Below are positions 62 through 43,846 of a stretch of DNA of 43,940 nt, in pieces. Position 1 is the stretch's first letter; every line of letters begins with the position of its first letter. This DNA is from Candidatus Micrarchaeota archaeon (GTDB taxonomy: Archaea > Micrarchaeota > Micrarchaeia > Burarchaeales > JAKAKT01), in the NCBI GenBank assembly GCA_964649265.1, contig CAZYPB010000003.1, forward strand, positions 1 to 43,940, given 5' to 3'. The position numbers and the translations under genes were made by a program. Under the pieces are notes generated by a model, which was not told the DNA's origin, ran no database searches, and saw only the letters and a program-made list of their open reading frames with translations.

Positions 62-964
62 TCAGTTGTTGAATGTCTCTCCTAGCTCGCAGCCCCAATG
101 GCCGCAGAACGGGTGAACGGTTGTTTCATTATATATTATATTTCCGGAAACTGTATCGAAAACACATTCTCCCTGCATCCAAGGCTTTCCTGAATTTGCA
201 AGTGGGGGCATTCCTCCTGCTGAGTCGGAATTGGAACTGTCTATAGTTGCATTTATTACGCAAACCCCGCCTATGCACACATCAACATGACATTCATCCC
301 AGTAATGCGGCTCGAATACCTCTTCCTCTATAGAACAAGGTTTTCCTGTGAATGCCTCGGAATCATAAACACATACCTTTTGGTCAGGGTCGCAATAATA
401 CAATACGCATGGTTTCTGCTCCCTTGTTAATGGGCCCGCTGGCCTTAAACCGCCGCAGTCCTCATCAACTGTTTCCAATTCGCATGTTGGGCAGGCACCG
501 CAATCAGCAAAGCAATTGGTGCATGTCTCGCTTCCTGCACACACACCATTTCCACAATTCCTGCAATCAGAAGGACAGTTCGTAGGATCTTCGGATCCTT
601 CGCAGAATCCATCCCCGCAAACAGGAGCGCATGCACCACATGCTGCTGGTTCGTTTCTGCAGTCATCCCCGCTTACTGCAAGACATGCTCCGTCAGTATG
701 GCAGTTGCGGCAATCAGAAGCGCATGTAACGCAGTTTTCATTTGCCCCACACCCGCCATTAAAATTGCATGTGCAGTCAGGGCATCCAGTGCCTTCTGAA
801 GGAAACCAAGTAGTTTCTGTTGCATCGGGGTTGCAAATTCCGTCTGCTGCCCCTCCTTCACATGTTGCAGCTTGAGCAAAAGAGATGCCAGAGAATACGA
901 ACATAAGGAAAAATATTACTGAGATAACCCCCTTTCTAGCCAGCACAATATACAATAAATGCAA
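62..964 (-). CDS. secreted cysteine-rich repeat protein (hypothetical)
   Basis: 300-aa ORF. Hydrophobic signal-like N-terminus (VISVIFFLMFVFSGISFAQA). Very Cys-rich body with modules CGDGFCEGSEDPTNCPSDC and CGNGVCAGSETCTNCFADC that recur in the 40336-42108 protein. No enzymatic motif seen. Confidence 0.6.
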   Translation of the reverse strand: MHLLYIVLARKGVISVIFFLMFVFSGISFAQAATCEGGAADGICNPDATETTWFPSEGTGCPDCTCNFNGGCGANENCVTCASDCRNCHTDGACLAVSGDDCRNEPAACGACAPVCGDGFCEGSEDPTNCPSDCRNCGNGVCAGSETCTNCFADCGACPTCELETVDEDCGGLRPAGPLTREQKPCVLYYCDPDQKVCVYDSEAFTGKPCSIEEEVFEPHYWDECHVDVCIGGVCVINATIDSSNSDSAGGMPPLANSGKPWMQGECVFDTVSGNIIYNETTVHPFCGHWGCELGETFNN

Positions 965-1032: not shown

Positions 1033-4000
1033 ATGCGGAGTGGAATTGTTCTCTCCTTGGTATTTTTGCTTGTTTTATCAGCACCCGCCATAGCTCAGAT
1101 GTGTCCTGTTGAGAGGGTTCCAACTGAATTGGATATGTCCGTTGACAGGAATATTCAGTCCGGGGTTCTAACTGCAACTGCAAAACTCTCGGGAATCGAC
1201 CTTGTTGGGAAAGCAGCTGCTCCGCTTCCTCTAGAAGAGATATATTTTCAGGAATGTTTGGTTGGGAATTATACAGCTGCAACATGCCCTGCGAGTGCGC
1301 ATACCTGCGCAGGTCCTCCTCAAGATTATTGGGAATGCACAACTGGTTGCTGCAGATCGAACATAGTGAAGAAGACTGATGCTGATGGAATTGCAATTGC
1401 TCTTTTCCCATTGGATAATGAGACAATAATTGTTGGTGCTTACATGGGCGGGGATGTTTACCTCCCGAGTAACAGCACTGCAAGTTACCTTTATCCCCCT
1501 CTTTTCGGAAGCCTTGGGATAACCGCGTGCTTCCCTCTTTTCCTAATATTAGGTTTACTCATAATGTCAATGAATGCAATGGGCCAGAGTCCATTGAGGG
1601 CATTTGACTTCTCCTCACTCAGAGCACCCAGAGCGAGGATGAGAGGGGCGACTGCGTTGGTTGTCGGAACAGGGGTGATTGCAGGAGCAATTGCAGCAGG
1701 TAAGGCAATAGGAAAAGCAGGTGAACTTAAGAAGATGGAGAAAGAGGGATTGATAGCGAAAAACAAGGAGACTGGCAGGTATGAAGAAACTGATAAAGGT
1801 AAGAAAGCGGGCATTGCATTAGCTGATGGGCCCGGAGGAACACAGACAGTTCATGATAGAAAGGCAAATCTAAAGAAACTTGAGAAAGAAGGGCTTATTA
1901 GAAAGAACACAGTAACTGGAAAATATGAAATTACAGAGGCTGGGAAAAAAGCAGGGATAGGAACTTTCAAAACAAACACAGGTACAACTAGGTTTTATAG
2001 ATCAATCACAGACAAGGATGGAAATGTAGCTTATGGTTTTGGGAAGGGACATATTAAAGGAAGAGGTGTTTTCGGAAAAGTTATTGATGGTGTTCAATAC
2101 ACTGCTGGTGCTGGATTTGCGAGAAATATGAATCTCACTGGTGGACCTGTTTGGGGAGCTATTGGGGATGGTGCTAAGGCTGGAGCAAAAGTGGTTGCAA
2201 AAGGAGGAGAAACTGTAGTAAATGCACCAGTTGGGGTTGCAACAGGTGGAAAAACAAATCTAGTTAAGTTAGTCGGAAAAGGATTGAAGGGTGCATGGAG
2301 AGGAGTTAGCTCTGCTGCCAAATGGACAAATAAATCACTTGGGGGAGTTCCTAAATTCATTGTTTGGACTGCTCCAAAAGGAGCATATGGTGTTGCCTCT
2401 GGTGATAGAGCTATTGCAATAGATGTTAAGAAAATGAAGAAACCCTGGAAAGCAGTTTCTGTTCCCAAGGCAACTGACATAGGCTTTGGTGTATCTGGGA
2501 AGAGAGCAGAAGCCGTAAAGAACCATAGTCTTTTTAGTATCTATTCAGGTTTGGTTGGAAGCGGAGAGGTTTCAGATTTAAGTGAAATAAAAGATCAGTT
2601 GAAAATAAGAGAGAATGAACTGGTAAGACTTCAAACACAGGGATTTGTTGCTAAGAAGAATGGTAAATGGGTTCTCACAAAATTAGGGGAAGAAAAATCC
2701 AGTAGAGCAAAAGATATGGTAAATGGAAAAATAATTGTTGATAGGAATGGGAATGAAAGGCATATGAGGGGCGTCGGTGGGTTGAGCTTCTCTGTTTTAG
2801 AAGGAATAGCAGATTTAGATGGGAAGAACGTTCACCAAAGTGCTAGTGGGGTTCCATTTGATTTAAGCTCAGGAATGTTTTCTGGAAGTCCGGGCAAAGG
2901 AGTCGTTGTAGAAAGGTATGGGAAAATAAAGGAAGTTGATGGACAGTATGTGATTCAAGCACCTCCGACTCCAGGAACAACTACTGTTGCTTTGATGAGC
3001 GCACTAAGTGTTATTGGTCCTCAGGGATCTCTATTTGGATCTGCCTATGTGATGAAATTCGGTAGGATAGATGAGATAGGTGGGAGTACTTTTGGGGGAT
3101 CCCTTAGGGTTGCAGGCGGGGGAGGAGCATCTGCAGCTGGCTATGAGTTAACGGATGACGAAAAGAATGAATTGAAAAAAGTAGAGAAAACGTTGAGTCC
3201 TGAGAATCTTGAAGCGACAACAAATAATCCTGCAGCGTGGACTGACCCAACAATAATGGCACTAATGCAATCAGGAGCCATAGACCCAAGTAAAATAGTT
3301 GCAATGGGTAGAAACACACAAATACAGGGATACAGACAAGCTGGTTTGATCATGAATGAAGATCAGCTTAGGGCAATGGAAGTTGCACATGAAAAAGCAA
3401 GTTCTTTGAAAGGTAATGATTATGTTTCTTCTTTCACGGATCAGCTTAGACAGGGAGTTACATTAAATGATGAAACCCATGTTCAGTTTAGTGATAGGCA
3501 AGTTCAAACAATTAATTTAGCACTTAACAGACGCAACAAGGAGGAAAGTCTTAATGCAATAGACACGTATTACTCAGGAACTGCAGACCTCCCCAGACAG
3601 GAAAGAGAAATGCGAGACATGGCTACTGAAATGAATATGCATGAGATCAGAGGGAGAGGAACCAGTCTAGGACACATGGCACAGGACAGAGAATTTCATC
3701 AGAAAATACGAGAACGCCTAGATACTGAATCCCAGATAAGAGATGCAGAGAGATTGGATACGCAAACCCCCTGGCTAAAGAAGACATATTCCATAATGAG
3801 TGCAAGCGGACAGGAAGCACATGACGTTAGATTCAGGACAAATAACTTGATAAATGAGTTACGAACTGAAAACAAGGCATTCGAAAATCTTCGATATGCT
3901 GAAGATAGGATGAGGGGAACTCAGGCAATATCTAAAATCAGACAGGATAGAGCTCAACTTAATTCTGACATAGAAAAGTTAAATGCAAATATAGACAATA

Positions 4001-4491
4001 CGGGTGCAGCAATGGATGCTCACCCTGTCGGAAGCCCTGAATTTAATTCTGCCAATGATGAATTCACTAAAAAGATGTGGGAATTGCACGGGGAGGGTGG
4101 AAAAACCACTGAGATGGAGCAACTAAACCAAAACGCAAGAGAAGCAACAAATCATATTGATAACCTATGGCTCAGAAGACACCACAATGAAGAGAAGAAT
4201 ATAGATAACGCACCGAGTTATATTGATAATATTAATAACAATGCGCAACAAGTTGGAACGTCTGCTTTCTTGCACCTGAATTCCACGCAACAAGGAAACG
4301 AACTCTATTCTTCAATTAACAATATGGCTAGAGAAGAGATGTTGGAAGAAGTTGAAGAGAAGATGTCTGACGAACTGCAAAGAATTCGCGAAAGAACTGC
4401 AGATGTAAGAACATTAGGAGATACGCCTGCAGTTAGAGATTATGTTGTTAAGAAAAAACTTGATGAGAAAACAGAAGGAACCTATTCATAA
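1033..4491 (+). CDS. large membrane-anchored protein, unknown function
   Basis: 1152-aa ORF. Signal-like helix (IVLSLVFLLVLSAPAIAQ), Cys-containing ectodomain, hydrophobic helices (ACFPLFLILGLLIMSM; ALVVGTGVIAGAIAAG). Two tandem ~30-aa repeats, a Gly/Ala/Lys-rich segment and a long charged helical C-terminus. No family recognised. Confidence 0.65.
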   Translation: MRSGIVLSLVFLLVLSAPAIAQMCPVERVPTELDMSVDRNIQSGVLTATAKLSGIDLVGKAAAPLPLEEIYFQECLVGNYTAATCPASAHTCAGPPQDYWECTTGCCRSNIVKKTDADGIAIALFPLDNETIIVGAYMGGDVYLPSNSTASYLYPPLFGSLGITACFPLFLILGLLIMSMNAMGQSPLRAFDFSSLRAPRARMRGATALVVGTGVIAGAIAAGKAIGKAGELKKMEKEGLIAKNKETGRYEETDKGKKAGIALADGPGGTQTVHDRKANLKKLEKEGLIRKNTVTGKYEITEAGKKAGIGTFKTNTGTTRFYRSITDKDGNVAYGFGKGHIKGRGVFGKVIDGVQYTAGAGFARNMNLTGGPVWGAIGDGAKAGAKVVAKGGETVVNAPVGVATGGKTNLVKLVGKGLKGAWRGVSSAAKWTNKSLGGVPKFIVWTAPKGAYGVASGDRAIAIDVKKMKKPWKAVSVPKATDIGFGVSGKRAEAVKNHSLFSIYSGLVGSGEVSDLSEIKDQLKIRENELVRLQTQGFVAKKNGKWVLTKLGEEKSSRAKDMVNGKIIVDRNGNERHMRGVGGLSFSVLEGIADLDGKNVHQSASGVPFDLSSGMFSGSPGKGVVVERYGKIKEVDGQYVIQAPPTPGTTTVALMSALSVIGPQGSLFGSAYVMKFGRIDEIGGSTFGGSLRVAGGGGASAAGYELTDDEKNELKKVEKTLSPENLEATTNNPAAWTDPTIMALMQSGAIDPSKIVAMGRNTQIQGYRQAGLIMNEDQLRAMEVAHEKASSLKGNDYVSSFTDQLRQGVTLNDETHVQFSDRQVQTINLALNRRNKEESLNAIDTYYSGTADLPRQEREMRDMATEMNMHEIRGRGTSLGHMAQDREFHQKIRERLDTESQIRDAERLDTQTPWLKKTYSIMSASGQEAHDVRFRTNNLINELRTENKAFENLRYAEDRMRGTQAISKIRQDRAQLNSDIEKLNANIDNTGAAMDAHPVGSPEFNSANDEFTKKMWELHGEGGKTTEMEQLNQNAREATNHIDNLWLRRHHNEEKNIDNAPSYIDNINNNAQQVGTSAFLHLNSTQQGNELYSSINNMAREEMLEEVEEKMSDELQRIRERTADVRTLGDTPAVRDYVVKKKLDEKTEGTYS

Positions 4492-4499
4492 GTGATAGT

Positions 4500-6608
4500 A
4501 TGTTGTTAGTAAGACCAGATGTGGAGGAAAGGCTCAGGAGCGAACTAGCCCTGCTCAGGGAAAAGGCCTCACTCATGGATTCAGATGTTGCAGATAGGAA
4601 ATTGAAGCGGGCAGATGAGCTTGAGAGGAAACTAGATGCATTCAAGCAGCGCGATGAATTCAAGAAAATCTCAGAAGAGTACTGGTCAGACAATGATGTT
4701 CAGCTCTCAACGATGTCAAGTATTTTTGATGAGATAAGCGAGGAGATAGAGAGGATAAACTCTTCGCTTGAGCAGGCGCAGAAGATGAAGAAGAGGAGCC
4801 TCGTTCTCAAACTGCAGAAAAAGGGAAAGGAACTGGATTCTGCACTGAGAAATATTTTTGAGTTCGTTCCATGCGGGGGAAGGACTGGAGGATATGTTAA
4901 GGACGTCTGCGGTGCATGGGCAAAACAGCAGGAAACGAAAAACAGGCTGGAGAGTTTAAGAGAAATAATGGAAAAACATGAGGAAACGGGTATTCCAATT
5001 GAAAAGAGATTAGCTGCAGCTACTAAAAGATTAGAGAGGATTGAGGGTGATTTCAAGAAAAAGAATGCAACTGCTTCTGATGTTCAAACTCAAAGAAACA
5101 GAGTTAAGGAAGTGGAAGAGCAGAAAGCAGCGTTTGAGAGAGAATTAAGTGAGAAAAAACAGAGACTCGCCAGTATGGAGAAATCCTTTGCTGAACTGCA
5201 TGAGAACATTACTAAGACTATTGTGAAACTTTCGAGAATGTCTGAGACAAACAGGTTGTCAGAAGGAGCTGGAACTCCACTTAAAAACATGTATTTGGGA
5301 CAATCGCTTCCGCGAGTCAGGAGGATGATTGGAACTGCTGTTAGAACACTTCCGCGAAAATTACTTGATGATGCTCAGATTGCATCTGTAAAGAAGTATG
5401 AAGAGATCCACTCGAAAGTGGATGAATCAATATTGAAAGCAAAGAACAGTGCAAGGGGAAAACGCTCAAAGGAAGCAGTAGAGGCACTTATGAATGGAGC
5501 AGTTGATCATGATTCAGAGGAGATTAAGCACTGCGCTCAGCTTCTTGAGGATGGGGATATACACCTTGCTGAAAGGGCCGTTGAGCATGCATTCAAAACA
5601 GGGAACATACACCAATACATAAAGGAAGAGCTAATGGGAATCATAAAGGAGATTGAGAAAGAATACGATAAAACGGGGGATGTTTCCAAATTCGAAGGGG
5701 AGCTTAGAAGCGCTGGGAATGCAATGTACTCAACAAGGATAGATGTGATGAGATTCGATTATATTGCAAGCGGAGTCCACTCCCCCAGGATATTCTGGGA
5801 GGATGCAGTTCTTACTTACAACTGGCTTGAAAGCATTGGTATCCTTTTTGAGGAAAGTTTGAAAAAAAATATAGAGAATTCCAGGGGAAAACCTGAATTC
5901 ATGAAAATAGCAAATGTTAATGGATTCACTCCTGAGCAGAAAGAGAATGCAGCTGATCTTATGAACATGCTTTCATTTGAAAGGGAGCTTCTTAAGAAAT
6001 TGAGAAACTCAGAAATTGTAGAGAGAGTGAGGAGATCAGAGGAAAGCATTTCGAGCCTTATAATGGCAAAGGGATTCTTTGATAATCCAATTTTCCTTAA
6101 GAATTTAGAAGAAGGGGAAGAGCATGCAGTTAATATAAAGGAGAGAATATTTGCAAGGGCAGGAGATAACCTTGATGCAATAGAGATATACTTTGACATT
6201 GCAAGAAAGAGAGAATTACTTGGGGAACTTCAAACAGATATGAGTGATGCTGCTGAGGCATTGGGGCAAGTGAAACAATTATGTAATGAAGTTGGGGAAC
6301 TTAAGAAGAGTATTGCGCAGAGCAAAGCAAACAAGGCAATTACTTTGAAGATATCTCTTGGAAGAAAGATAAAGGAACTCGAGGATGTTGTTGAGAGGAT
6401 AATTGGCCAGCACCTCGATGAGGAGGCAATTGCGCAGATATCAGATCCTAAGAAAAGTGGAAAGAAACTCTACGCTGAGATAACCAATATGCCTCTTGTT
6501 GCGCAGGCAGTTAAGAACAGAGTTAATGAAGAGAGAGAGATACTCTCAAAACTTATTGAGAAACCTGAAGAGATGAGTACTCCAATTAACGATATGGCCG
6601 CTGCTTGA
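4500..6608 (+). CDS. coiled-coil protein, unknown function
   Basis: 702-aa ORF starting a few nt after the upstream stop, so probably co-transcribed. E/K/R/L-rich heptad-like composition throughout. No catalytic motif. Exact start uncertain. Confidence 0.6.
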   Translation: MLLVRPDVEERLRSELALLREKASLMDSDVADRKLKRADELERKLDAFKQRDEFKKISEEYWSDNDVQLSTMSSIFDEISEEIERINSSLEQAQKMKKRSLVLKLQKKGKELDSALRNIFEFVPCGGRTGGYVKDVCGAWAKQQETKNRLESLREIMEKHEETGIPIEKRLAAATKRLERIEGDFKKKNATASDVQTQRNRVKEVEEQKAAFERELSEKKQRLASMEKSFAELHENITKTIVKLSRMSETNRLSEGAGTPLKNMYLGQSLPRVRRMIGTAVRTLPRKLLDDAQIASVKKYEEIHSKVDESILKAKNSARGKRSKEAVEALMNGAVDHDSEEIKHCAQLLEDGDIHLAERAVEHAFKTGNIHQYIKEELMGIIKEIEKEYDKTGDVSKFEGELRSAGNAMYSTRIDVMRFDYIASGVHSPRIFWEDAVLTYNWLESIGILFEESLKKNIENSRGKPEFMKIANVNGFTPEQKENAADLMNMLSFERELLKKLRNSEIVERVRRSEESISSLIMAKGFFDNPIFLKNLEEGEEHAVNIKERIFARAGDNLDAIEIYFDIARKRELLGELQTDMSDAAEALGQVKQLCNEVGELKKSIAQSKANKAITLKISLGRKIKELEDVVERIIGQHLDEEAIAQISDPKKSGKKLYAEITNMPLVAQAVKNRVNEEREILSKLIEKPEEMSTPINDMAAA

Positions 6609-7554
6609 GCTTTCTTTTTTTAAGTGAATTCTCATCCCTGCAAAGAAGTACAACCCTGCTTGGTAAATGCTCCTCGGAAACCATGTAACCAGTTAGTTCT
6701 GCGAGTTTTTTTGAGAACTCTGCGATCTCATCGTGCTTAATCATTGAATCAAGCGAAAGATTTCTTCCTGGTTCCCTTGAGCCTCCGACAAACATGAAGC
6801 TCTTAACCTCAACATAATCTGGCGATGCTTTCTCAATCTGTTTTGCGTATCCTTTTGCATTATTGAAGTTTAGGTCCCGTGCAAGAGTCATCCTTAGGAC
6901 TGTCCTTGTTTTTGCGCTTTGCATGAATTCCAGTGATTGCTCTATTCTGCTCCAACCATCCTTTATCCATGGTCTGCAGACTCGATTGTAATTCTCTTTA
7001 TCTGGAGACACCATGGAAATATAGAGTTGTGTTGGGAGAGTCTTTAGGTTCTCAAGCGCTTTCGGGTAGGTTCCATTAGTAACTAGGAATGTCGTCATCT
7101 CCTGTTTTGAGAACTCCTTTAGTAAATCGGATAAATATGGGTAGAGAGTTGGTTCGCCTGCAAGACTTAAGGCAACCTGGGATGGTTGCTTGGATTCCAG
7201 CCACATCTCTTTCTCAACCTTCCCATTTCCCCCATAACCCGAGGTGATTCTATCCTGTTCCCTGAGCATTCCCTCAACAATTGAAAAGGGTTCATCCCAT
7301 TTGTAATCCTTTCCTGGCAATTCCTCATCCTTTAGTTGCGTTCTCCAGCAGAAAGTGCATGCATGTGAGCAGAACTGGAGAGAAGGAGTGCACTGCATGC
7401 ACCTGTGGCTCTGTATTCCATAGAAAGTGTTCTTATAGCAGAAGCGTTTCTTTGTTAGTGCTTCCTTTAGCCATTTGCACCTCTTAACTGCTGAATGCTC
7501 CCCTACAATGTGATAGCCCTGCTTTGTCAGTTTTGCTTTGAAATCAGAGTCCAT
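6586..7554 (-). CDS. taw1: tRNA 4-demethylwyosine synthase (radical SAM, Taw1/TYW1 family)
   Basis: 322 aa. N-terminal GYHIVGEHSAVKRCKW..., then FYGIQSHRCMQCTP and the radical-SAM cluster CSHACTFCWR, typical of archaeal Taw1. Confidence 0.85.
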   Translation of the reverse strand: MDSDFKAKLTKQGYHIVGEHSAVKRCKWLKEALTKKRFCYKNTFYGIQSHRCMQCTPSLQFCSHACTFCWRTQLKDEELPGKDYKWDEPFSIVEGMLREQDRITSGYGGNGKVEKEMWLESKQPSQVALSLAGEPTLYPYLSDLLKEFSKQEMTTFLVTNGTYPKALENLKTLPTQLYISMVSPDKENYNRVCRPWIKDGWSRIEQSLEFMQSAKTRTVLRMTLARDLNFNNAKGYAKQIEKASPDYVEVKSFMFVGGSREPGRNLSLDSMIKHDEIAEFSKKLAELTGYMVSEEHLPSRVVLLCRDENSLKKRKLKQRPYR

Positions 7555-7589: not shown

Positions 7590-8759
7590 TCAGCTGTTCT
7601 CACAGCCATTTGAGAGCATTGTTGCGAAGTCTTTTCCTTTCTCCTCGAAGAATCTCTTCTTTAGTCTGTTCTCGGCTTCCGCTTTCCCGATTTTCTTTAT
7701 GAGTGCTTGCGCTTTGTCTGCTCCCTGAGATTTCTTTACCTCTAAGTATTCCTTGTACTGTGGGTTCAGCTCCAGGTAACCTGGGTAGTATGTCTCGCAG
7801 AGGTTAAGCACCTGAATGTAGACACTTGCTGCTATCCCCACTGTTTTTGCAACATGTGTACTCACAGCATCCTCCTCAACTGCCCTGAATTGGTCCTGCT
7901 CATCTTTCTTCTTCTCCTGGAACCCGTTCTTTGTTTTCTCTTGCCTCTTGTTTAGTAGCCTGTTCATCAGCTTCCTAACCCCGAGCACAGCCCCTGCAAG
8001 GAGTGATGCTCCGGTTACATAGAACAGGTGCTCTATGTCCTGCACTTTTGGATAGTAGGTAGCAGCCAGGTTCATAATCTCTGTTTTAAGTGTTGCTATT
8101 GCAGTTACTGAGACTCCTAAGGATGCCAGCCATGCAGTGACTGATGGAAGCGTTTTCACTGTCTTTGATTTCTCCAGGTATTCCAGGCGCATGTCCCGTA
8201 TATCCCTGTGGTGGTGTATGTTGTCCTTTGTGCATTCTGCTGTTATCTCCAGTTTCCTGTTGAGCAACTTGTTTGATTCCCCTATAGCTATACCTGAAGT
8301 TATTATCAGTGTTCTCACTGCTTGAATGAACGAGCGGGCCCTTTCATCTCGCCTATAGTTCTTATCCAGGTCCGCAAGCTCGTCCATTGCCTTATGGGAG
8401 ATTTTTCTCTTATCGGCATCAGATGATGAGACTCGAGAAATAACAAGCGTGTACCCCAGGGCAGCCAATGGAGTTATTGGTGGGTACTCTGCTTTCTCTG
8501 TTTCCTTCTTCCCAGGTTGCTTTTTTTCTACTTTATTAGCCGTGCTAGGCGTTTTCGGGGTTGCTGGCTTCTTTGGCTTTTTCTCTGGCTCTTTCTTTCT
8601 TGAGCCATTTCCGCCACTAGGGCTATCCATCTTAGCTTTTGGCAGCATATCCGTAACAACGCTGTCGCTGAACAAAGAGACCAATGGGCCTGGAAAGGAC
8701 CTCCTGTAAACGAACCCCCCTTCGTTATCTGTCCCGGTTAAAGGGACTATTGTTTTCAT
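7590..8759 (-). CDS. hypothetical membrane-associated protein
   Basis: ORF track gives 7590-8834. I prefer the ATG at 8759 (MKTIVPLTG...) because 8760-8834 lies in a GC-rich structured non-coding-looking island. Lys/Pro-rich linker (KKEPEKKPKKPATPKTP) and hydrophobic helices. No family recognised. Confidence 0.5.
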   Translation of the reverse strand: MKTIVPLTGTDNEGGFVYRRSFPGPLVSLFSDSVVTDMLPKAKMDSPSGGNGSRKKEPEKKPKKPATPKTPSTANKVEKKQPGKKETEKAEYPPITPLAALGYTLVISRVSSSDADKRKISHKAMDELADLDKNYRRDERARSFIQAVRTLIITSGIAIGESNKLLNRKLEITAECTKDNIHHHRDIRDMRLEYLEKSKTVKTLPSVTAWLASLGVSVTAIATLKTEIMNLAATYYPKVQDIEHLFYVTGASLLAGAVLGVRKLMNRLLNKRQEKTKNGFQEKKKDEQDQFRAVEEDAVSTHVAKTVGIAASVYIQVLNLCETYYPGYLELNPQYKEYLEVKKSQGADKAQALIKKIGKAEAENRLKKRFFEEKGKDFATMLSNGCENS

Positions 8760-8771
8760 CTCTGTTCGGTC

Positions 8772-8915
8772 AACACGTACTTGGGGACTTCCAAACTTGT
8801 GTGCACGGGTTATCGCCCGTGGTCTGCGACCCATACAGCCCCCCTTTCACCCTTACCATGGGAGACATCATACGTGCCACCTCCTCCGCATGCGCTATTG
8901 CGCATCCAAGACCGT
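8772..8915 (-). ncRNA. candidate structured RNA or 5' leader (unclassified)
   Basis: About 58% GC by hand count over 8781-8930, above the AT-rich surroundings. Nested helices: 8772-8779 with 8871-8878, 8783-8789 with 8837-8843, hairpin 8804-8821 (CACGGG-N6-CCCGTG). The three non-Watson-Crick positions are G-U only on the minus strand. The 5' end is a guess. Confidence 0.3.
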
Positions 8916-29791: not shown

Positions 29792-30199
29792 TTATTCCTC
29801 TGGGATTATGGGAGCGATCCAGATATTTGCTTTCTCTGTTTTGAAAAGAGCAGGTGCCTTTCCCTTTTTACCCATAAGAATAGGATATTTCCAGCCGAAT
29901 GCACCAGTAACTGCGTTGAAGTGTCTTTTTGGGAATATGTTACGGGCATCCCCTATCGTTGCGCTCTGGAAAAGCAGGTCTTTTTTCTTAATTTCCACCA
30001 TCTTTGATTCATGGAAAAGATGCCTGTTCCTTGGAGTTATTGCTATTACATTATCCTTTGAGTAGACAATCCTTCTTAGGGAATTGAACGAGAAGGGTTG
30101 CCCTAATTTCACCTCTATTTTCTTTGCAGTTAACTCTAAATTCTCCCTCTCTTTTTTGGAAAGCTCGTCTCTCTTAAAAATCCAATCCAGTAATTTCAT
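29792..30199 (-). CDS. hypothetical protein
   Basis: Track ORF runs to 30250 but overlaps the 3' part of the tRNA gene. Start moved to ATG 30199 (MKLLDWIF...), just after the tRNA oligo-T tract. No family recognised. Confidence 0.55.
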   Translation of the reverse strand: MKLLDWIFKRDELSKKERENLELTAKKIEVKLGQPFSFNSLRRIVYSKDNVIAITPRNRHLFHESKMVEIKKKDLLFQSATIGDARNIFPKRHFNAVTGAFGWKYPILMGKKGKAPALFKTEKANIWIAPIIPEE

Positions 30200-30216
30200 A
30201 AGAACACCAAAAAAGA

Positions 30217-30358
30217 TGGGCCCGGGGCGATTCTCAGGACCCCCATTCAAAAGAAAAGGGATTTCGGTTTGAACGCCCGACCTACAGCTTGCCTAGATAC
30301 GTTGTGCTAGAACGTGTCGTATAAGACTGCCGCTCTAACCAGGCTGAGCTACGGGCCC
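30217..30358 (-). tRNA. tRNA-Ile (anticodon UAU) with two introns
   Basis: 142 nt, 75 nt after removing introns. GGGCCCG/CGGGCCC acceptor, A73, GCTC..GAGC D-stem, GCAGT/GCTGT anticodon stem, loop CT-TAT-A. Anticodon-loop intron about 30290-30319 with BHB (CTTA:TAGG central helix). T-loop intron about 30231-30267 between TTCAAA and T-CGCCC. TTTTTAATATTT about 30 nt upstream; T6 tract follows. No encoded CCA. Confidence 0.85.
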
Positions 30359-30443: not shown

Positions 30444-31775
30444 ATGGACTTGGGAGCAGGCCTTAGAAAGGCATTGGCTAAGATTACTGGGGCAGCCCTT
30501 ATCGATGAGAAATCAGTTAAGGAGCTTATTAAGGAGCTTCAGAGGGTACTTATAGCTAATGATGTTGAGGTTAAACTTGTTTTCGAGCTCTCAAAGAGAA
30601 TTGAGAAGGAAGCGCTTGATAGGAAGCAACTCAAAGGTGTAAACACTAAGGAGCATGTTGTTAAGGTTGTCTATGATGAGCTAACGAAGCTTATGGGGGA
30701 GAAGCACGAACCAAAATTAGGGAAGCAGAGAATCCTTTTACTTGGGCTTTATGGTTCTGGGAAAACAACTTCTGTTGGGAAACTTGCTCATTTCTATAAG
30801 AAATCAGGTCTCTCTGTTGGAGTTGTTTGCTGCGATACTGACAGACCTGCCGCCTATGAACAATTAGAGCAGGTTGCGAAAGGAGCAAAAGCTGTTTTTT
30901 ATGGGCAGAAGGGAGAGAAGGATTCTGTAAAAATAGCAAAGGATGCAATGGGTAAAGCTGAGGAGGATGTTCTTATATTTGACTCTGCAGGTAGAAATGC
31001 TTTCAATAATGATTTGAAAGAGGAGCTAAAAGGAATCGATGCAGTTGTCAAACCAGATGAGCGTTTCCTTGTTGTTAGTGCGGATATTGGACAGGTTGCC
31101 GGGAGGCAGGCGAATGAATTCAACAGCGCTGTTCCTGTTACTGGGGTTATAATTACTAAGTTGGATGGAAGTGGAAAGGGAGGTGGTGCCCTTAGCTCTG
31201 TTGCAACAACTGGGTCGCAGGTCTCTTTCATTGGAATTGGGGAGAAACTAGGAGATTTTGAGGTATTTGATGCAAAGAAATATGTCGGAAGGCTTCTTGG
31301 ATTCCCTGATTTGGAGAGCCTTATTGAGAAAGTGAAGGAGATAAGTGAGCAGGAAGACATCAAACCAGACCAGATGATGGATGAGAAGTTCACAGTAAAA
31401 ACGTTCTATGAACAACTGAAAGCTGCAAAAAAACTGGGTCCACTTAAGAATGTTTTCGGAATGCTTGGCATGGTTGATATTCCTAAAGATCTGATGGAGC
31501 AGAGTGAGGAGAAGCTGAAGAACTACGAAGTGATAATTGCTTCAATGACAGAAGAGGAGAGGGAGAACGCTGATCTGATAAAGAAGAATAAGAGCAGACT
31601 TGAGAGAATTGCTAAAGGTTCTGGAACAAAGCCTGAGGATGTGAAGGAACTTCTTTCCCGCTTTGGACAGATGGAGAAAATGTTGAAGGCATTCAAGCAC
31701 AACAGAGGCTTCAGGAAGAAGATGGAGCAATTCATGAAAAAAGGAGGAGGAGCGAATCTCCCACCTCAGATGTGA
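30444..31775 (+). CDS. srp54: signal recognition particle protein SRP54
   Basis: GLYGSGKTTSVGKLA, DTDRPAAYEQL, DSAGRN, TKLDGSGKGGGALS, Met/Lys-rich M domain. Confidence 0.95.
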   Translation: MDLGAGLRKALAKITGAALIDEKSVKELIKELQRVLIANDVEVKLVFELSKRIEKEALDRKQLKGVNTKEHVVKVVYDELTKLMGEKHEPKLGKQRILLLGLYGSGKTTSVGKLAHFYKKSGLSVGVVCCDTDRPAAYEQLEQVAKGAKAVFYGQKGEKDSVKIAKDAMGKAEEDVLIFDSAGRNAFNNDLKEELKGIDAVVKPDERFLVVSADIGQVAGRQANEFNSAVPVTGVIITKLDGSGKGGGALSSVATTGSQVSFIGIGEKLGDFEVFDAKKYVGRLLGFPDLESLIEKVKEISEQEDIKPDQMMDEKFTVKTFYEQLKAAKKLGPLKNVFGMLGMVDIPKDLMEQSEEKLKNYEVIIASMTEEERENADLIKKNKSRLERIAKGSGTKPEDVKELLSRFGQMEKMLKAFKHNRGFRKKMEQFMKKGGGANLPPQM

Positions 31776-32828
31776 TTACCAGTAGTCACTTATGAAAGGA
31801 TGTCTAACATTAATTACATCCAGTTCTTTGCAAATTGCATCTGTTTTTAGAAACTCTGCCAGACTGGGTTTTGTTCTACCATTATCCCCTGAGATGAATT
31901 CCTTTACATAGGTTCCTGCTTCTGTGCTCATCTTAATCTCAAGCATATCTTCGGAGATTTTCTTGCATTCCAGATTAAGAATCTTTCTAACTCTTACAAG
32001 ATCTGCTCTTCTGTGGATGACTCGTTTGGGAGTTTTCTGGTATAGAGTCAGTTTTGTTGGAATTTCAGATAAATCCTTTTCAGAGAATGGAGCCGATGTT
32101 TGAACAAGCGCTCTGTAGGATTTCTCAAGTCTTGCTTTCTTAACTCTCTCTACAATTGAGCTATTCTCGTATTTCAGATTAAAAATCTCAACCTTTCCCT
32201 TTGCACTTTTGTTTACTTTTTTTCCAAGGAACCCCAAATTCAACTTTCTTCTCTTTGGAGAGATAAGCTCGAGAACGAATGGTCTTCCCTCTCCAAGCAT
32301 AAGAGCATCTATGTCCTCTCTCCCAGCTCCATGGAATTTGGAATCGGTTGCATCGAATTCCCTTAAGAATTGCTCTGAAAATACATCTTCAATTGAGAGG
32401 TGCTTTACCTTTGTTCCTCCGCATTTCTCACATCCGTTTTTGCAGTAACATGGCCATTTTGTCTGCGCTAACTCCCTTGAAAATTTTCTGTAATGCCCAT
32501 AGATGAACACTGAGGAACTTGAGATCTCAACCCTGTTGTTTGTGAAGTCAAACAGAATGTTTATGTCCGGCTCTTCCCGGGTGAATTTTTTTCCACTTTT
32601 CTCAGAGAACTTACTCACAAGCTCCCTATTTAGCTCTGTTTTAGTCGAAAGTGCATTTGAGAGCCCTTCTTTGTCCCACTTCTCTTCTTGCTCCAATTCT
32701 AGCACTCTTGGAATTGATGAGGAGATTGAAAACTTCGAGAATTCGAAACCCTCTGCTTCGCTCAGGGCTTTCTCTATTAATTCATCTAAATTAGCCAAGC
32801 CATATCTGGAAGTCAACTTTATCTCCAT
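31776..32828 (-). CDS. pus10: tRNA pseudouridine(54/55) synthase Pus10
   Basis: 350 aa. Cys cluster WPCYCKNGCEKCGG, catalytic region GAGREDIDALMLGEGRPFVLEL, C-terminal TYVKEFISGDNGRTKPS. The start overlaps the upstream gene by 38 nt and may lie further in. Confidence 0.85.
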   Translation of the reverse strand: MEIKLTSRYGLANLDELIEKALSEAEGFEFSKFSISSSIPRVLELEQEEKWDKEGLSNALSTKTELNRELVSKFSEKSGKKFTREEPDINILFDFTNNRVEISSSSVFIYGHYRKFSRELAQTKWPCYCKNGCEKCGGTKVKHLSIEDVFSEQFLREFDATDSKFHGAGREDIDALMLGEGRPFVLELISPKRRKLNLGFLGKKVNKSAKGKVEIFNLKYENSSIVERVKKARLEKSYRALVQTSAPFSEKDLSEIPTKLTLYQKTPKRVIHRRADLVRVRKILNLECKKISEDMLEIKMSTEAGTYVKEFISGDNGRTKPSLAEFLKTDAICKELDVINVRHPFISDYW

Positions 32829-33488: not shown

Positions 33489-33551
33489 TGCCTGTGATGA
33501 TATGAACAACCGCTGAGATACTCACTGATGAGGCTGACAGAATCTGAGGCA
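33489..33551 (+). ncRNA. C/D box sRNA (2'-O-methylation guide)
   Basis: Terminal stem TGCC/GGCA. C box GTGATGA (33494-33500), 12-nt guide TATGAACAACCG, D' CTGA (33513-33516). C' TGATGA (33526-33531), 12-nt guide GGCTGACAGAAT, D CTGA (33544-33547). Fills the 117-nt intergenic gap. Confidence 0.8.
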
Positions 33552-36386: not shown

Positions 36387-36633
36387 GGAGTGGATGGCCG
36401 GCAGTCACTTGCTTAAAGCAGGAGGAAGCTCTGCCCATCGTGAAAGCTTCGAAGGGTTTAAGGCCCAAAGCAGGAACAGAAACGAACTCCCTTACGGGGA
36501 TGAGGATGAAGAAATGAGACTCGTGAGGTGCAGATGAAACGACTTGCTGTGAAGCGCTATGTGCGATGCAAGGCATTAAGCCGCTAAGTCGAATACTGTC
36601 AAAAACAGAAGGCAGGCTATGGCCACCCACTCT
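36387..36633 (+). ncRNA. rnpB: RNase P RNA (compact)
   Basis: P1 GGAGTGGATGGCC (5') with GGCCACCCACTC (3'). P4 5' strand GGAGGAAGCTCTGCC (compare GGAGGAAAGUCC) pairing with ACAGAAGGCAGGCTATGG (compare ACAGAACCCGGCUUAU), leaving one bulged U. GCAGGAACAGAAACG; GATGAGGATGAAGAAATG (compare GGUAAGGGUGAAA); GTGCAGATGAAACGACT (compare AGAUGAAUGACU). The track ORFs here are spurious. Confidence 0.85.
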
Positions 36634-37408: not shown

Positions 37409-37614
37409 GCCAAGGTAACTCAGTTTGGTTAGAGTGCCAGACTCATAAGCTTAGCTTCTTGAGTGATGAGCTTCATGCGATGATATAAGGTCACTCTGCC
37501 AGGTGTAATCTGGAAGCCGCGGGTTCAAACGAAATCCCTTTTCTTTTGGAAAGAAAGGTCTCTCGACACCCCAAAAGAAACGAAAAGGCATTTCTGAAAA
37601 TCCCGCCCTTGGCA
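37409..37614 (+). tRNA. tRNA-Met (anticodon CAU; elongator-type; Ile2 not excluded) with two introns
   Basis: 206 nt. GCCAAGG/CCTTGGC acceptor, A73, ACTC..GAGT D-stem, CCAGA/TCTGG anticodon stem, loop CT-CAT-A. About 60-nt anticodon-loop intron (about 37448-37507; junction ambiguous because of a shared TAA). 71-nt T-loop intron 37530-37600 with a perfect BHB. No A1:U72 or GGG/CCC initiator signature. Confidence 0.85.
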
Positions 37615-40335: not shown

Positions 40336-42108
40336 GTGAAATATGTTTTAGCCTTTCTTGTTGTTGCACTTTTGATTTTCGGATGTCCTTCTCAAGGACC
40401 TGTTTGTAATGAACCCTACATTCTGGTTGGGGATGATTGTTGTCTTGATAATGATGGAAACAATGTTTGTGATAAGGATCAGCAAACAGCCCAGCAGACG
40501 GAAAAACAGACTACTAGCCCAACATGCAATCCACCATATATTCTAGTGGGAAGCGACTGCTGTCTTGATGCAGATGATAACAAGATATGCGATTCGGATG
40601 AAACTGAACCTCAGCAAAGTGCAGAAAAAGAACCTGCGGCAAATGAACCGCAATGTGGGGCTCCATACATAATGGTTGGCAATCTCTGCTGCCTTGATAA
40701 GAATGGGAATGATATTTGTGATACCGATGAGAGTGAACCAGAGCCAGAACCCGAACCTCAGCCCCAGCAAACTGTAGCAGTGTGCGGAAATGGAGCGTGC
40801 GAATCAGGAGAGAGTTCAGTTAATTGCTGTGATGACTGTGGATGTCAGACAGGGTATTCATGTGTTTCCAACTCCTGTGAACAGGATTCGGTTTGCGGAG
40901 ATGGAGTGTGCAGTGGTGATGAGAGCTCTGATAACTGCTGCGAGGATTGTGAGTGTAATGCAGGATTCTATTGCGATGAGACATGCAAAACACAATTCCA
41001 GTTTGCACCCATGGAGTTTCAATTCGTTTTAATAGATCTATGTGGGAATGGGGTGTGTGGAGATTCTGAGGACTCAACAACCTGCTGCACTGATTGCGGT
41101 TGTCCGATAACTCATCATTGCGAGGAGAATGTGTGCGTTGAGGGAATGTACATTGCACCCATTATTATGCAGGCATATATAGTGGACGCACCTAAGGAAA
41201 CAATCATTTCTGAGGGAAGCGGTAATTACTACCCGATAATTTACGGAGATAGAATTGTTTGGCAACAATACCAAGCAGGAGGGAAACCCCAGGTTAACAT
41301 GTATGATTTGAATACTAAGACAATAAACGTGATTTCAGATACCTGGTCCTCAATGCCAGATATATGGGAGGATAAAATGGTATGGGAAGATGGGAGGAGA
41401 AGTATTGGGGACAATGTAGATGTTTACTACTTGGACTTGGGGACAACTGTTGAGGGGATGATATCCCCAAGGGAGTCATATCAAAGAACCCCGTCAGTTT
41501 ACAACAACCAGGTTGCTTGGGTCGAGCAGACAAGCAAGGGCTGGGATGCCTATGTATATGATTTCAGCGAGAGAAAGGAATACAGACTGACCAGCGATAA
41601 AGATGTCACTCAGAATCCTCCCCGCACCTGGGCAGGTTGGGTTGTTTGGAGCCAGGCAGACCATAGCAGTCCGGGGAACTCACAGTATGAGATCGTAACA
41701 TATCATCTCCCAACAAAGAAAAAGGAAACAATATACTCAACCAACTCGCCCCATGAGGTCGAATATAGTACGGGGATAGATAATGGGAGAATTGCATTCA
41801 TCGCAGGAAGCAATGGAAATGAGAAAACCTATGTTTACGATATAAGCACAAAACTACTTACCCAGGTGAGTACAATTGACAGCGATAAGAAAGAATGCTC
41901 CATACAGGAAAACAGGGTTGTGTGGGCGGATAAGAGAAATGGAAACTGGGACATCTACATGTACGATCTCTCTAGTAAAGAAGAGACTCAGATAACTGAT
42001 GATTCAACAGACCAGGAGCACCCGGATGTCTATGGGAGCACAATAGTCTACCATGGATTATCAGAAACCCAAACTGGAAAACATATATTCAAGTACGAAC
42101 TCGATTAA
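40336..42108 (+). CDS. modular surface lipoprotein: Cys repeats plus beta-propeller
   Basis: GTG start, LLIFGC lipobox. Three repeats C.(E/P/A)PYI(L/M)VG..CCLD...N..CD.D, three full CG(N/D)G.C...E....CC.DC.C modules, then about 6 blade-like repeats (RIVWQQ...VNMYDL; KMVWED...VYYLDL; NQVAWVE...AYVYDF; NRVVWADKRNGNWDIYMYDL). Confidence 0.75.
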   Translation: MKYVLAFLVVALLIFGCPSQGPVCNEPYILVGDDCCLDNDGNNVCDKDQQTAQQTEKQTTSPTCNPPYILVGSDCCLDADDNKICDSDETEPQQSAEKEPAANEPQCGAPYIMVGNLCCLDKNGNDICDTDESEPEPEPEPQPQQTVAVCGNGACESGESSVNCCDDCGCQTGYSCVSNSCEQDSVCGDGVCSGDESSDNCCEDCECNAGFYCDETCKTQFQFAPMEFQFVLIDLCGNGVCGDSEDSTTCCTDCGCPITHHCEENVCVEGMYIAPIIMQAYIVDAPKETIISEGSGNYYPIIYGDRIVWQQYQAGGKPQVNMYDLNTKTINVISDTWSSMPDIWEDKMVWEDGRRSIGDNVDVYYLDLGTTVEGMISPRESYQRTPSVYNNQVAWVEQTSKGWDAYVYDFSERKEYRLTSDKDVTQNPPRTWAGWVVWSQADHSSPGNSQYEIVTYHLPTKKKETIYSTNSPHEVEYSTGIDNGRIAFIAGSNGNEKTYVYDISTKLLTQVSTIDSDKKECSIQENRVVWADKRNGNWDIYMYDLSSKEETQITDDSTDQEHPDVYGSTIVYHGLSETQTGKHIFKYELD

Positions 42109-43716: not shown

Positions 43717-43846
43717 TGGACCCGAGGGGATTTTCAGAATTCCCGTTGCTTTCTTTGGGGAATCAAGTTTGAACCCCTGGCCTCCTGCATTTTGGAGACA
43801 TAGAAGTCTGCGCCAAGCAGGCACGCTACCACTGCGCCACGGGCCC
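43717..43846 (-). tRNA. tRNA-Ala (anticodon GGC) with two introns
   Basis: 130 nt. GGGCCCG/CGGGTCC acceptor with the G3:U70 Ala identity pair, A73, CCTGC/GCAGG anticodon stem, loop TT-GGC-G. 21-nt anticodon-loop intron (43790-43810) with perfect BHB (TTGG:CCAA central helix, AGAC/GTCT inner hairpin). 37-nt T-loop intron (about 43731-43767) between TTCAAA and T-CCCCT. Confidence 0.85.

Follow-up and report, generated by a model that had tools for sequence, protein, structure and literature searches.

T-loop tRNA introns of a Candidatus Micrarchaeota archaeon carry all or part of a mirror-image sequence module dispersed among DPANN archaea

Two described systems come closest to the introns analyzed here, which interrupt three tRNA genes of a Candidatus Micrarchaeota archaeon between T-loop positions 59 and 60 (contig CAZYPB010000003.1 of GenBank assembly GCA_964649265.1; the whole stretch of 43,940 nt that was analyzed is called the window below). 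One is ARMAN-2 (Candidatus Micrarchaeum acidiphilum), for which the published account (Fujishima et al. 2011, PMC3239211) describes 59/60 introns with strict and relaxed splice motifs, one tRNA with two T-loop introns (53/54 and 59/60), a tRNA-Ile(UAU) with a 37/38 intron, and disruption of 56% of the tRNA genes. In the same account, the broad-specificity splicing endonuclease of ARMAN-2 is the epsilon2 form of EndA, which cleaves a 59/60 intron of the hBH (helix-bulge-helix) type in vitro (PMC3239211); a structure of this enzyme has been reported (PMC3488258). The other system is the transposed introns of Thermoproteales (Fujishima et al. 2010, cited in PMC3239211 and reviewed in PMC4090602), in which related sequences occur at non-canonical sites of unrelated tRNAs, are interpreted as recent gain by transposition, and are found in hosts with relaxed-specificity endonucleases. 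T-loop 59/60 introns, tRNA-Ile(UAU) and a broad-specificity endonuclease are thus already published for Micrarchaeota in the ARMAN-2 account, and the introns of the window are therefore a further example of a known trait. The new part is the module to which the sequence shared by the introns belongs.

The host was placed in Micrarchaeota (DPANN) by SRP54, encoded at 30444–31775, which is 81–84% identical to proteins of Candidatus Micrarchaeota metagenome-assembled genomes (MAGs). In the raw window no tRNA was reported by ARAGORN, with or without its intron mode, or by Rfam at gathering and E-value thresholds. When the T-loop inserts alone were deleted, ARAGORN recovered three genes, each with an anticodon-loop intron, and deletion of both introns gave tRNA-Met(cat), tRNA-Ile(tat) and tRNA-Ala(ggc), in which every T-loop read TTCAAAT and identity elements (e.g., G3:U70 in tRNA-Ala) were intact. 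A generic scan for T-loop-interrupted tRNAs returned exactly the same three genes in the window. An earlier note, made from the letters of the window, had placed T-loop inserts of 71, 37 and 37 nt in these genes and had stated, for tRNA-Met, that cutting restores a UUCAAAU loop; the coordinates were exact and the loop was restored in all three. The features are the following:

37409–37614, plus strand: tRNA-Met(CAU) gene, elongator type, two introns (ARAGORN; 75 nt after both inserts are deleted)
37448–37507, plus strand: Met anticodon-loop (37/38) intron, 60 nt (ARAGORN after excision)
37530–37600, plus strand: Met T-loop (59/60) intron, 71 nt (strict fold and excision)
37530–37580, plus strand: full pyrimidine-purine-purine (Y-R-R) module copy within the Met T-loop intron (covariance model R1)
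30217–30358, minus strand: tRNA-Ile(UAU) gene, two introns (75 nt after excision; strict bulge-helix-bulge at 37/38; G3:C70)
30290–30319, minus strand: Ile 37/38 intron, 30 nt (excision and anticodon-arm fold)
30231–30267, minus strand: Ile T-loop (59/60) intron, 37 nt (apparent deletion derivative with the 5' part of the module)
43717–43846, minus strand: tRNA-Ala(GGC) gene, two introns (72 nt after excision; G3:U70)
43790–43810, minus strand: Ala 37/38 intron, 21 nt (excision and anticodon-arm fold)
43731–43767, minus strand: Ala T-loop (59/60) intron, 37 nt (apparent deletion derivative with an S3-like tract, see below)

The Met and Ile T-loop introns share an identical 18-nt block, GAAATCCCTTTTCTTTTG, and all three T-loop introns finish with CTGA(A/G)AA before exon T60, both as described in the earlier note. 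The chance of an 18-mer common to a 71-nt and a 37-nt sequence was estimated at about 4e-8. This block is the 5' arm of a module of about 55 nt with a closing helix (P1) and three successive tracts: the pyrimidine tract S1, then S2 as the complement of S1, and finally S3. From 5' to 3', the module consists of the first strand of P1 (4–5 variable nt), AT, S1 of the form CCC T(n) C T(m), a loop of 2–8 nt, S2 (complementary to S1 and ending in GG), TCT, the second strand of P1 (4–5 nt), a linker of 2–5 nt, and S3 of the form CCC A(n) G A(m). The corresponding elements of the Met copy are CGA, AT, CCCTTTTCTTTT, the loop, AAAGAAAGG, TCT, TCG, ACA and CCCCAAAAGAAA. This copy scored 61.7 bits against covariance model R1 (E = 2e-11) and was the sole full module in the window, where the pattern matched once against 0.00 matches expected. 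The Ile T-loop intron retains the first P1 strand, AT and S1, and the Ala T-loop intron retains an S3-like tract (CCCCAAAGAAAG) in a small hairpin, together with the 3' TGAA-AA. Both look like internal deletions of longer orthologous introns. Judged by their sequences, the three T-loop introns are homologous and not merely structurally convergent.

An alignment of 86 module copies was used to measure covariation in P1. Its columns show all four Watson-Crick pair types, and 95.6% of P1 cells are paired, compared with 50–66% when the partner strand is slid. The third tract follows a different rule: S3 is the mirror image of S2 or, equivalently, complements S1 in parallel orientation. This mirror rule held in 97.7% and 96.5% of copies at the two columns that vary, for which a figure of 98.5% was also obtained. 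Among 99 parsed copies, 90 fitted only the parallel rule, none fitted only the antiparallel rule and four fitted neither. Divergent copies retrieved by a covariance-model search brought in alleles in which n is 2 or 5, or in which the C/G is absent or present twice, and these obeyed the rule as well. Six different alleles follow it. Other ways of engaging S3 were considered. Antiparallel pairing of S1 with S3, proposed by RNAfold for the copy in the window, fits 0 of 94 asymmetric copies as a general rule. A loop-tail pseudoknot was rejected since its pairing was restricted to a CCC/GGG subfamily and was inconsistent in other copies, and a second hairpin (CCCC...GGGG) holding S3 in its loop was present in 34 of 61 cases against 24.8 expected from shuffled controls, which was not significant.

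We know of no templated copying process that yields mirror images, and the established structural code that requires them is the triple helix. From the mirror-image nature of S3 we therefore infer, on sequence grounds, that the module may form an intrastrand triplex. On the tRNA-sense strand such a triplex would use the purine motif (A.A-U and G.G-C), with the third strand antiparallel to the purine strand, and on the opposite strand it would use the classical U.A-U / C+.G-C motif. To our knowledge, the purine motif is poorly documented for RNA, whereas the U.A-U / C+.G-C type is well documented. The internal loop separating P1 from the main helix (37533–37535 with 37558–37562) reads U.C/C.U in the sense strand and tandem G.A/A.G in the antisense strand. 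Taken with the triplex chemistry, this would make antisense RNA the better folder of the two, even though it is the sense strand that tRNA introns transcribe. A different Y-R-R repeat, T4CT3CT3 / A3GA3GA4 / A4GA3GA4, was seen in the 53/54 intron of a tRNA-Met from a related stretch (L002; L-numbers label DNA stretches from other genomes), and it follows the same mirror rule. No Rfam family, riboswitches and C/D-box RNAs included, came near threshold for the module on either strand, and a literature search with module sequence strings and for tRNA-intron repeats of DPANN archaea returned no description of it.

To locate the module elsewhere, one genome per species was scanned with the exact pattern, which matched at least 118 stretches. 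Among the matches listed, 109 were in DPANN or unclassified archaea: Micrarchaeota (at least 59 stretches), Aenigmatarchaeota (at least 18), Pacearchaeota (at least 4), Nanoarchaeota and relatives (at least 3), Iainarchaeum (at least 3), Woesearchaeota (at least 2) and unclassified archaea (at least 20). Bacteria (at least 8 stretches) and Thaumarchaeota (at least 1) supplied the nine non-DPANN matches among those listed; none of the nine has S3, and about seven were estimated to arise by chance. A profile search of all retrieved DNA gave at least 129 distinct module copies, nearly all of them from DPANN genomes. At least 67 of these lie right after GTTCRA in a T-loop, at least 7 just past the 3' end of a tRNA, at least 3 just before a tRNA and at least 52 elsewhere. 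All of the T-loop copies are in the sense orientation. In at least 46 T-loop cases, a tRNA is recovered once 57–407 nt are excised, and these cases represent about 24 anticodons and 13 amino acids. The earlier note had suspected a genome-wide phenomenon from three tRNAs out of three, and the relatives bear this out: in three single Micrarchaeota MAGs, T-loop introns that carry the module number at least 8, 7 and 12. Sequence shared beyond the needs of the splice motif is seen both in the Met/Ile identity and in the presence of the module in so many T-loop introns.

Some module copies are found in introns at other positions, and a copy in L113 is apparently located in a D-loop; in this Aenigmatarchaeota stretch (437–643, plus strand) one tRNA apparently carries two module introns, separated by about 150 nt, in the D-loop and in the T-loop. 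Within the window, and likewise in the relatives closest to it, module copies are confined to tRNA introns. Of the copies classed as elsewhere, at least 12 of 52 are located on the strand opposite two co-directional genes and end 4–6 nt from the downstream start codon. These antisense spacer copies are mostly in Aenigmatarchaeota-like genomes, and the genes downstream encode Spt5, L19e, S6e, RpoD, an aminoacyl-tRNA synthetase and an aminotransferase. Reverse-complement copies that fill a spacer were seen in L009, L011, L024, L035, L038, L040, L078 (3749–3801), L086, L095 and others, and in several spacer copies a downstream AGACCTT is able to pair with AAGGTCT of the module in an alternative hairpin. 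The spacer unit could be a terminator, a ribosome-binding unit or a regulatory unit. No transposase or constant adjacent gene accompanied the spacer copies, whose neighbors are unrelated housekeeping genes, and just two matches were found among 2.9 million viral contigs. In one Micrarchaeota MAG (MAG085), five copies (L012, L057, L059, L066 and L120) have near-identical longer flanks (…CCTCCGCGGTTCGGTCCAT before the module and …GGGGGAGGGTCAGGA after it), which suggests that they may lie within a larger multi-copy repeat.

Orthologous loci were taken from the relatives with 81–84% SRP54 identity, whose contigs also hold these genes for tRNA-Ile, tRNA-Met and tRNA-Ala. Exon sequences at these loci are conserved (91–99% identity for Ile and 87–95% for the 5' part of Met), and the T-loop introns differ in length: for Ile, 37 nt in the window and 161, 120 and 129 nt in L006, L002 and L001; for Met, 71 nt in the window and 109 nt in L001; for Ala, 37 nt in the window and 96 nt, with a full module, in L001. 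Introns hold 0, 1 or 2 modules, and the tRNA-Met of L002 (19600–19895, minus strand) has three introns, at 37/38, 53/54 and 59/60. Module subtypes were assigned by inspection in these MAG-derived sequences. The CGAA/TTCG-ATG subtype occurs in one genome (CAZWEI...) in tRNA-Arg(tct), tRNA-Arg(ccg) and tRNA-Leu(taa) (L056, L104 and L077) and in L093 and L115, and the CACA/CGTG-GCGT subtype occurs in Met, Ala, a second Met and Ser of PPR_0038. Among tRNA-Met genes, the subtype is CGAA/CTCG-ACA in the window, CACA/CGTG-GCGT in L001 and CTCC/GGAG-CAA in L039. By this inspection, intron relatedness does not track tRNA identity or orthology. The occurrence of one subtype in four to five tRNAs of a genome, with differing subtypes in orthologs, points to copying between tRNA genes, and the sequences argue for rapid duplication and deletion of introns. 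The proposal of the earlier note that the introns spread by duplication or transposition is thus supported by subtype and by length.

In an unconstrained minimum-energy fold, the Met T-arm forms the exact structure that the earlier note had claimed: outer helix GCGGG/CCCGC (37519–37523/37602–37606), central helix UUCA/UGAA (37524–37527/37595–37598) and inner helix GAAAU/AUUUC (37531–37535/37590–37594), with bulges AAC and AAU at 37528–37530 and 37599–37601 (z = -3.0). This strict 3-4-3 bulge-helix-bulge (BHB; hBHBh' with the flanking helices) had been described as textbook in all three genes, which held for Met and failed for Ile and Ala, whose minimum-energy T-arm folds contain no strict 3-4-3 BHB (z = -1.3 for Ile and -0.6 for Ala). 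The latter junctions keep the outer helix, the 4-bp helix (UUCA/UGAG in Ile and UUCA/UGAA in Ala) and the 3' bulge, and have an enlarged 5' bulge or a weak inner helix, giving a relaxed motif. Relaxed junctions are the norm among the T-loop introns of relatives: under the 59/60 model, among 46 such introns the central helix is fully paired (4 of 4) in 23 and lacks one pair (3 of 4) in 14, and the inner helix reaches at least 3 bp in just 8. The same three genes of the window also carry 37/38 introns, and those of Ile and Ala fold as strict BHBs (z = -3.4 for Ala).

ARAGORN called the Ile gene Ala(tgc), which is ruled out by G3:C70 and by the strict BHB of its anticodon arm; this BHB sets the intron at 37/38 and hence the anticodon as UAU. 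The UAU anticodon is rare in Archaea, where AUA is usually read by an agmatidine-modified CAU tRNA. A mechanically called open reading frame (ORF) at 29792–30250 (minus strand) shares 34 nt with the 3' end of tRNA-Ile; its true start is probably internal, and gene callers blind to this tRNA will make it too long. At 60 nt, the anticodon-loop intron of tRNA-Met is as long in L001 and L039 as here, and it contains GUGAUGA (C-box-like) and GAUGAU motifs. No clear D box, Rfam match or clean BHB in the minimum-energy fold was found for this intron. No C/D-box match of Rfam was obtained in or near the T-loop intron either, and the CUGA near its 3' end is accounted for by BHB pairing.

Taken together, we favor the explanation that the inserts are 59/60 BHB introns forming one module-built family that spreads between tRNA genes, with the module as a tolerated triplex-type repeat, and we put its probability at about 0.7. 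The exon-intron anatomy, the homology, the distribution and the covariation are the observations on which it builds; splicing itself would follow from this anatomy and from published precedent. In the proposed mechanism, the UGAA or UGAG near the 3' end of the intron would pair with the near-universal U54-U55-C56-A57 to form the central 4-bp helix, A58-A59 with the first intron base would make up one 3-nt bulge, and the last two intron bases with U60 the other. The endonuclease would cut after A59 and before U60, and ligase would restore UUCAAAU. As the docking site is the conserved T-loop, the same intron should be workable in any tRNA, and such portability would explain both the preferred 59/60 position and the breadth of hosts. 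The conserved T-arm flanks may allow copying by gene conversion, or the copying may proceed through RNA, with fast turnover by duplication and deletion. With lower confidence, the module is regarded as a structured interspersed repeat of the intrastrand-triplex type that is not needed for tRNA function and would be selfish or neutral; we propose that it persists in introns because splicing removes it. A broader version, offered tentatively since we lean somewhat against it, would make the module a DPANN-wide class of element, a hairpin read by a third, mirror strand and closed by a covarying helix, that moves among introns, tRNA flanks and spacers.

Several observations weigh against the favored explanation. 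The strand transcribed with the tRNA predicts the purine motif, and both the well-documented triplex and the tandem G.A/A.G fall on the opposite strand. S1 is rich in oligo-T and could terminate archaeal transcription inside the gene. The inner helix has 0 or 1 bp in the Ile and Ala junctions and in 27 of the 46 relatives, so that an enzyme of relaxed specificity, such as an (alpha-beta)2 or epsilon2 form, would be needed. Finally, the sequence conservation across several DPANN phyla, the covariation of P1 and the strict orientation bias (always sense in tRNAs and, in the set examined, antisense near start codons) speak more for a functional element than for junk. Such an element might be a functional RNA, whose triple helix guides or times the folding and processing of pre-tRNA, or which serves as a stable small RNA or protein platform; its product would be the excised intron, a tRNA trailer or an intergenic RNA, with introns as one of several delivery ways. 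A core near-identical in Micrarchaeota, Aenigmatarchaeota, Pace-, Woese-, Nano- and Iainarchaeota, the joint covariation of S1, S2 and S3 along with that of P1, and an orientation that is strict relative to transcription in both T-loops and the spacers before start codons are in its favor. However, orthologous tRNAs manage without the module, introns hold from zero to two copies of it, and the Ile and Ala introns of the window have lost half of it. Neither an Rfam family nor a significant hairpin closing S3 was found, and the switch of strand between tRNAs and spacers, for which no single model accounts, is inexplicable by one RNA function. We consider a functional RNA unlikely, if still a serious contender.

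It is rather improbable that the module acts at the DNA level, as an intrastrand-triplex or H-DNA repeat, a terminator or a gene-boundary element that destabilizes its surroundings or delimits transcription units, with T-loop introns, tRNA flanks and spacers as the sites that tolerate it. Its occurrence on either strand relative to genes, the extreme length instability of module-bearing introns and the T-rich tracts at tRNA gene ends and between co-directional genes would suit such a role, as would the logic of mirror and inverted repeats that it shares with the potential intrastrand triplex (PIT) repeats of E. coli, which are tied to local rearrangement (PMC4666352). But a property of duplex DNA alone would not be expected to give the strict strand bias seen in each context, the P1 covariation indicates a single-stranded fold, and for the E. 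coli motif neither a stable triplex in vivo nor any promoter or terminator activity was observed (PMC4666352). Two simpler accounts concern the inserts of the window themselves. A similarity that arose convergently, under the constraints of the BHB and the T-loop, would explain the common CTGA(A/G)AA end, which is dictated by UUCA pairing and the bulge; the 18-nt identity lies outside the BHB-constrained bases, and more than 100 copies of a longer module, some of them outside introns, start with this very block, which makes convergence very improbable. The silence of standard tRNA finders on the raw sequence is what would be expected if the inserts were retained, in pseudogenes, split genes or misassemblies. 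However, the exons are intact, are conserved across independent assemblies and keep identity elements such as G3:U70 of Ala, no other Met, Ile or Ala genes were seen in the region, the same architecture recurs in about 24 anticodon families, and there is experimental precedent (PMC3239211). We regard retention as improbable in the extreme.

The splicing endonuclease bears on the favored explanation through the relaxed junctions. The broad BHB specificity that the earlier note proposed for this enzyme is in line with the published ARMAN-2 work (PMC3239211). EndA gave no match within the window, and EndA-like ORFs were detected in two relatives by tblastn with an approximate M. jannaschii EndA query. 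The Micrarchaeota MAG stretch L037 encodes, at 1554–2048 (plus strand), a 164-aa single-unit EndA-like protein directly 5' of a tRNA with a T-loop intron. Its best match among solved structures is the M. kandleri enzyme, and the ARMAN-2 epsilon2 enzyme matched weakly. The Tyr is present and the catalytic His and Lys are absent, and the protein therefore resembles a structural subunit; no catalytic partner was seen in the search. This sequence suggests that a heteromeric endonuclease may operate in the L037 lineage. In an Aenigmatarchaeota contig, L070 (969–1825, minus strand), the EndA-like protein has two tandem units; module-bearing T-loop introns also occur in Aenigmatarchaeota (L051, L063 and L091).

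Other features of the window include an archaeal RNase P RNA and two tRNA-modification genes:

36388–36632, plus strand: archaeal RNase P RNA (Rfam, 94.6 bits), compact, 245 nt against a 288-position model
6586–7554 and 31776–32828, both minus strand: genes for a radical-SAM enzyme of wyosine formation and for Pus10

The RNase P RNA gene is located about 800 nt from tRNA-Met and is flanked by a small ORF and a KaiC-like gene. Pus10 was named by synteny with annotated relatives; this enzyme makes pseudouridine 54/55 in the T-loop, i.e., in the loop that is interrupted by these introns. A weak match to the C/D-box small RNA sR14 (33490–33549, plus strand; 25.2 bits, E = 0.009, under the gathering score) sits in the spacer beside the riboflavin kinase gene. 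The adjacent large ORFs at 1033–4491 (1152 aa) and 4500–6608 (702 aa), both on the plus strand, had no Pfam family except for a sub-threshold winged-helix match, and Pfam assigned no family to the ORFs at 40336–42108 (590 aa) and 7590–8834 (414 aa).

If the favored explanation is correct, one structured module would account for T-loop introns in about 24 anticodon families and several DPANN phyla. The UGAA-UUCA pairing would make 59/60 a general landing site, so that the much-debated origin of non-canonical archaeal tRNA introns becomes testable in DPANN archaea. The mirror-image covariation is an unusually clean natural signature of a three-stranded interaction; should RNA or single-stranded DNA adopt the fold in vivo, it would be among very few natural triplexes detectable by covariation alone, would tie archaeal tRNA intron gain to a defined structured repeat, and might serve RNA stability, RNA processing or the start of translation in these minimal-genome organisms. 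In addition, standard finders miss every tRNA of the window, and tRNA complements of DPANN archaea are therefore probably under-called.

Among known elements with similar features, the ENE of MALAT1 and PAN RNA is a U-rich hairpin that clamps an A-rich tract by U.A-U triples interrupted by C+.G-C, and in MALAT1 the element is linked to tRNA-like processing. The Y-Y-R order that an ENE requires is present on the reverse strand of the DPANN module. An ENE-type element was rejected for the tRNA-sense transcript, which is Y-R-R (one U-rich and two A-rich tracts) and has no U-rich internal loop. Repetitive extragenic palindromic (REP) elements and miniature inverted-repeat transposable elements (MITEs) resemble the module in being short, multi-copy, hairpin-forming, found in spacers in either orientation, and subject to fast turnover. 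Classification as a MITE was discarded, as the P1 flanks (4–5 nt) differ between copies and are complementary, not duplicated, and the copies showed neither conserved terminal inverted repeats nor target-site duplications. The PIT (or TM) repeats of E. coli are 36-nt G/C-rich motifs of the form CCCTCGCCCCTC-loop-GGGGAGAGGG-TTA-GGGTGAGGGG (Holder et al. 2015, PMC4666352). They share with the module a pyrimidine tract, its complement and a mirror purine tract on one strand; both are short, multi-copy and interspersed, and the PIT repeats are also linked to local genomic variability (PMC4666352). Unlike them, the DPANN module has an A/T-rich sequence with no relation to theirs and the additional covarying P1, and it is archaeal and centered on tRNA introns and flanks, with a triplex predicted from sequence.

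ARMAN-2 belongs to the same phylum as the host and likewise has strict and relaxed 59/60 junctions (PMC3239211); its pair of 53/54 and 59/60 introns has a counterpart in the tRNA-Met of L002. The 59/60 intron tested in ARMAN-2 is 13 nt long, whereas those described here range from 37 to 407 nt and are module-built, and the passages of its account that were consulted mention no shared intron sequence family or internal module. The EndA-like protein of L037, which is without the catalytic His and Lys, is not obviously of the epsilon2 type found in ARMAN-2. In contrast to the transposed introns of Thermoproteales, which belong to Thermoproteota (PMC3239211 and PMC4090602), the introns described here have DPANN hosts, and the unit they share is a defined module that also occurs outside introns and in several phyla.

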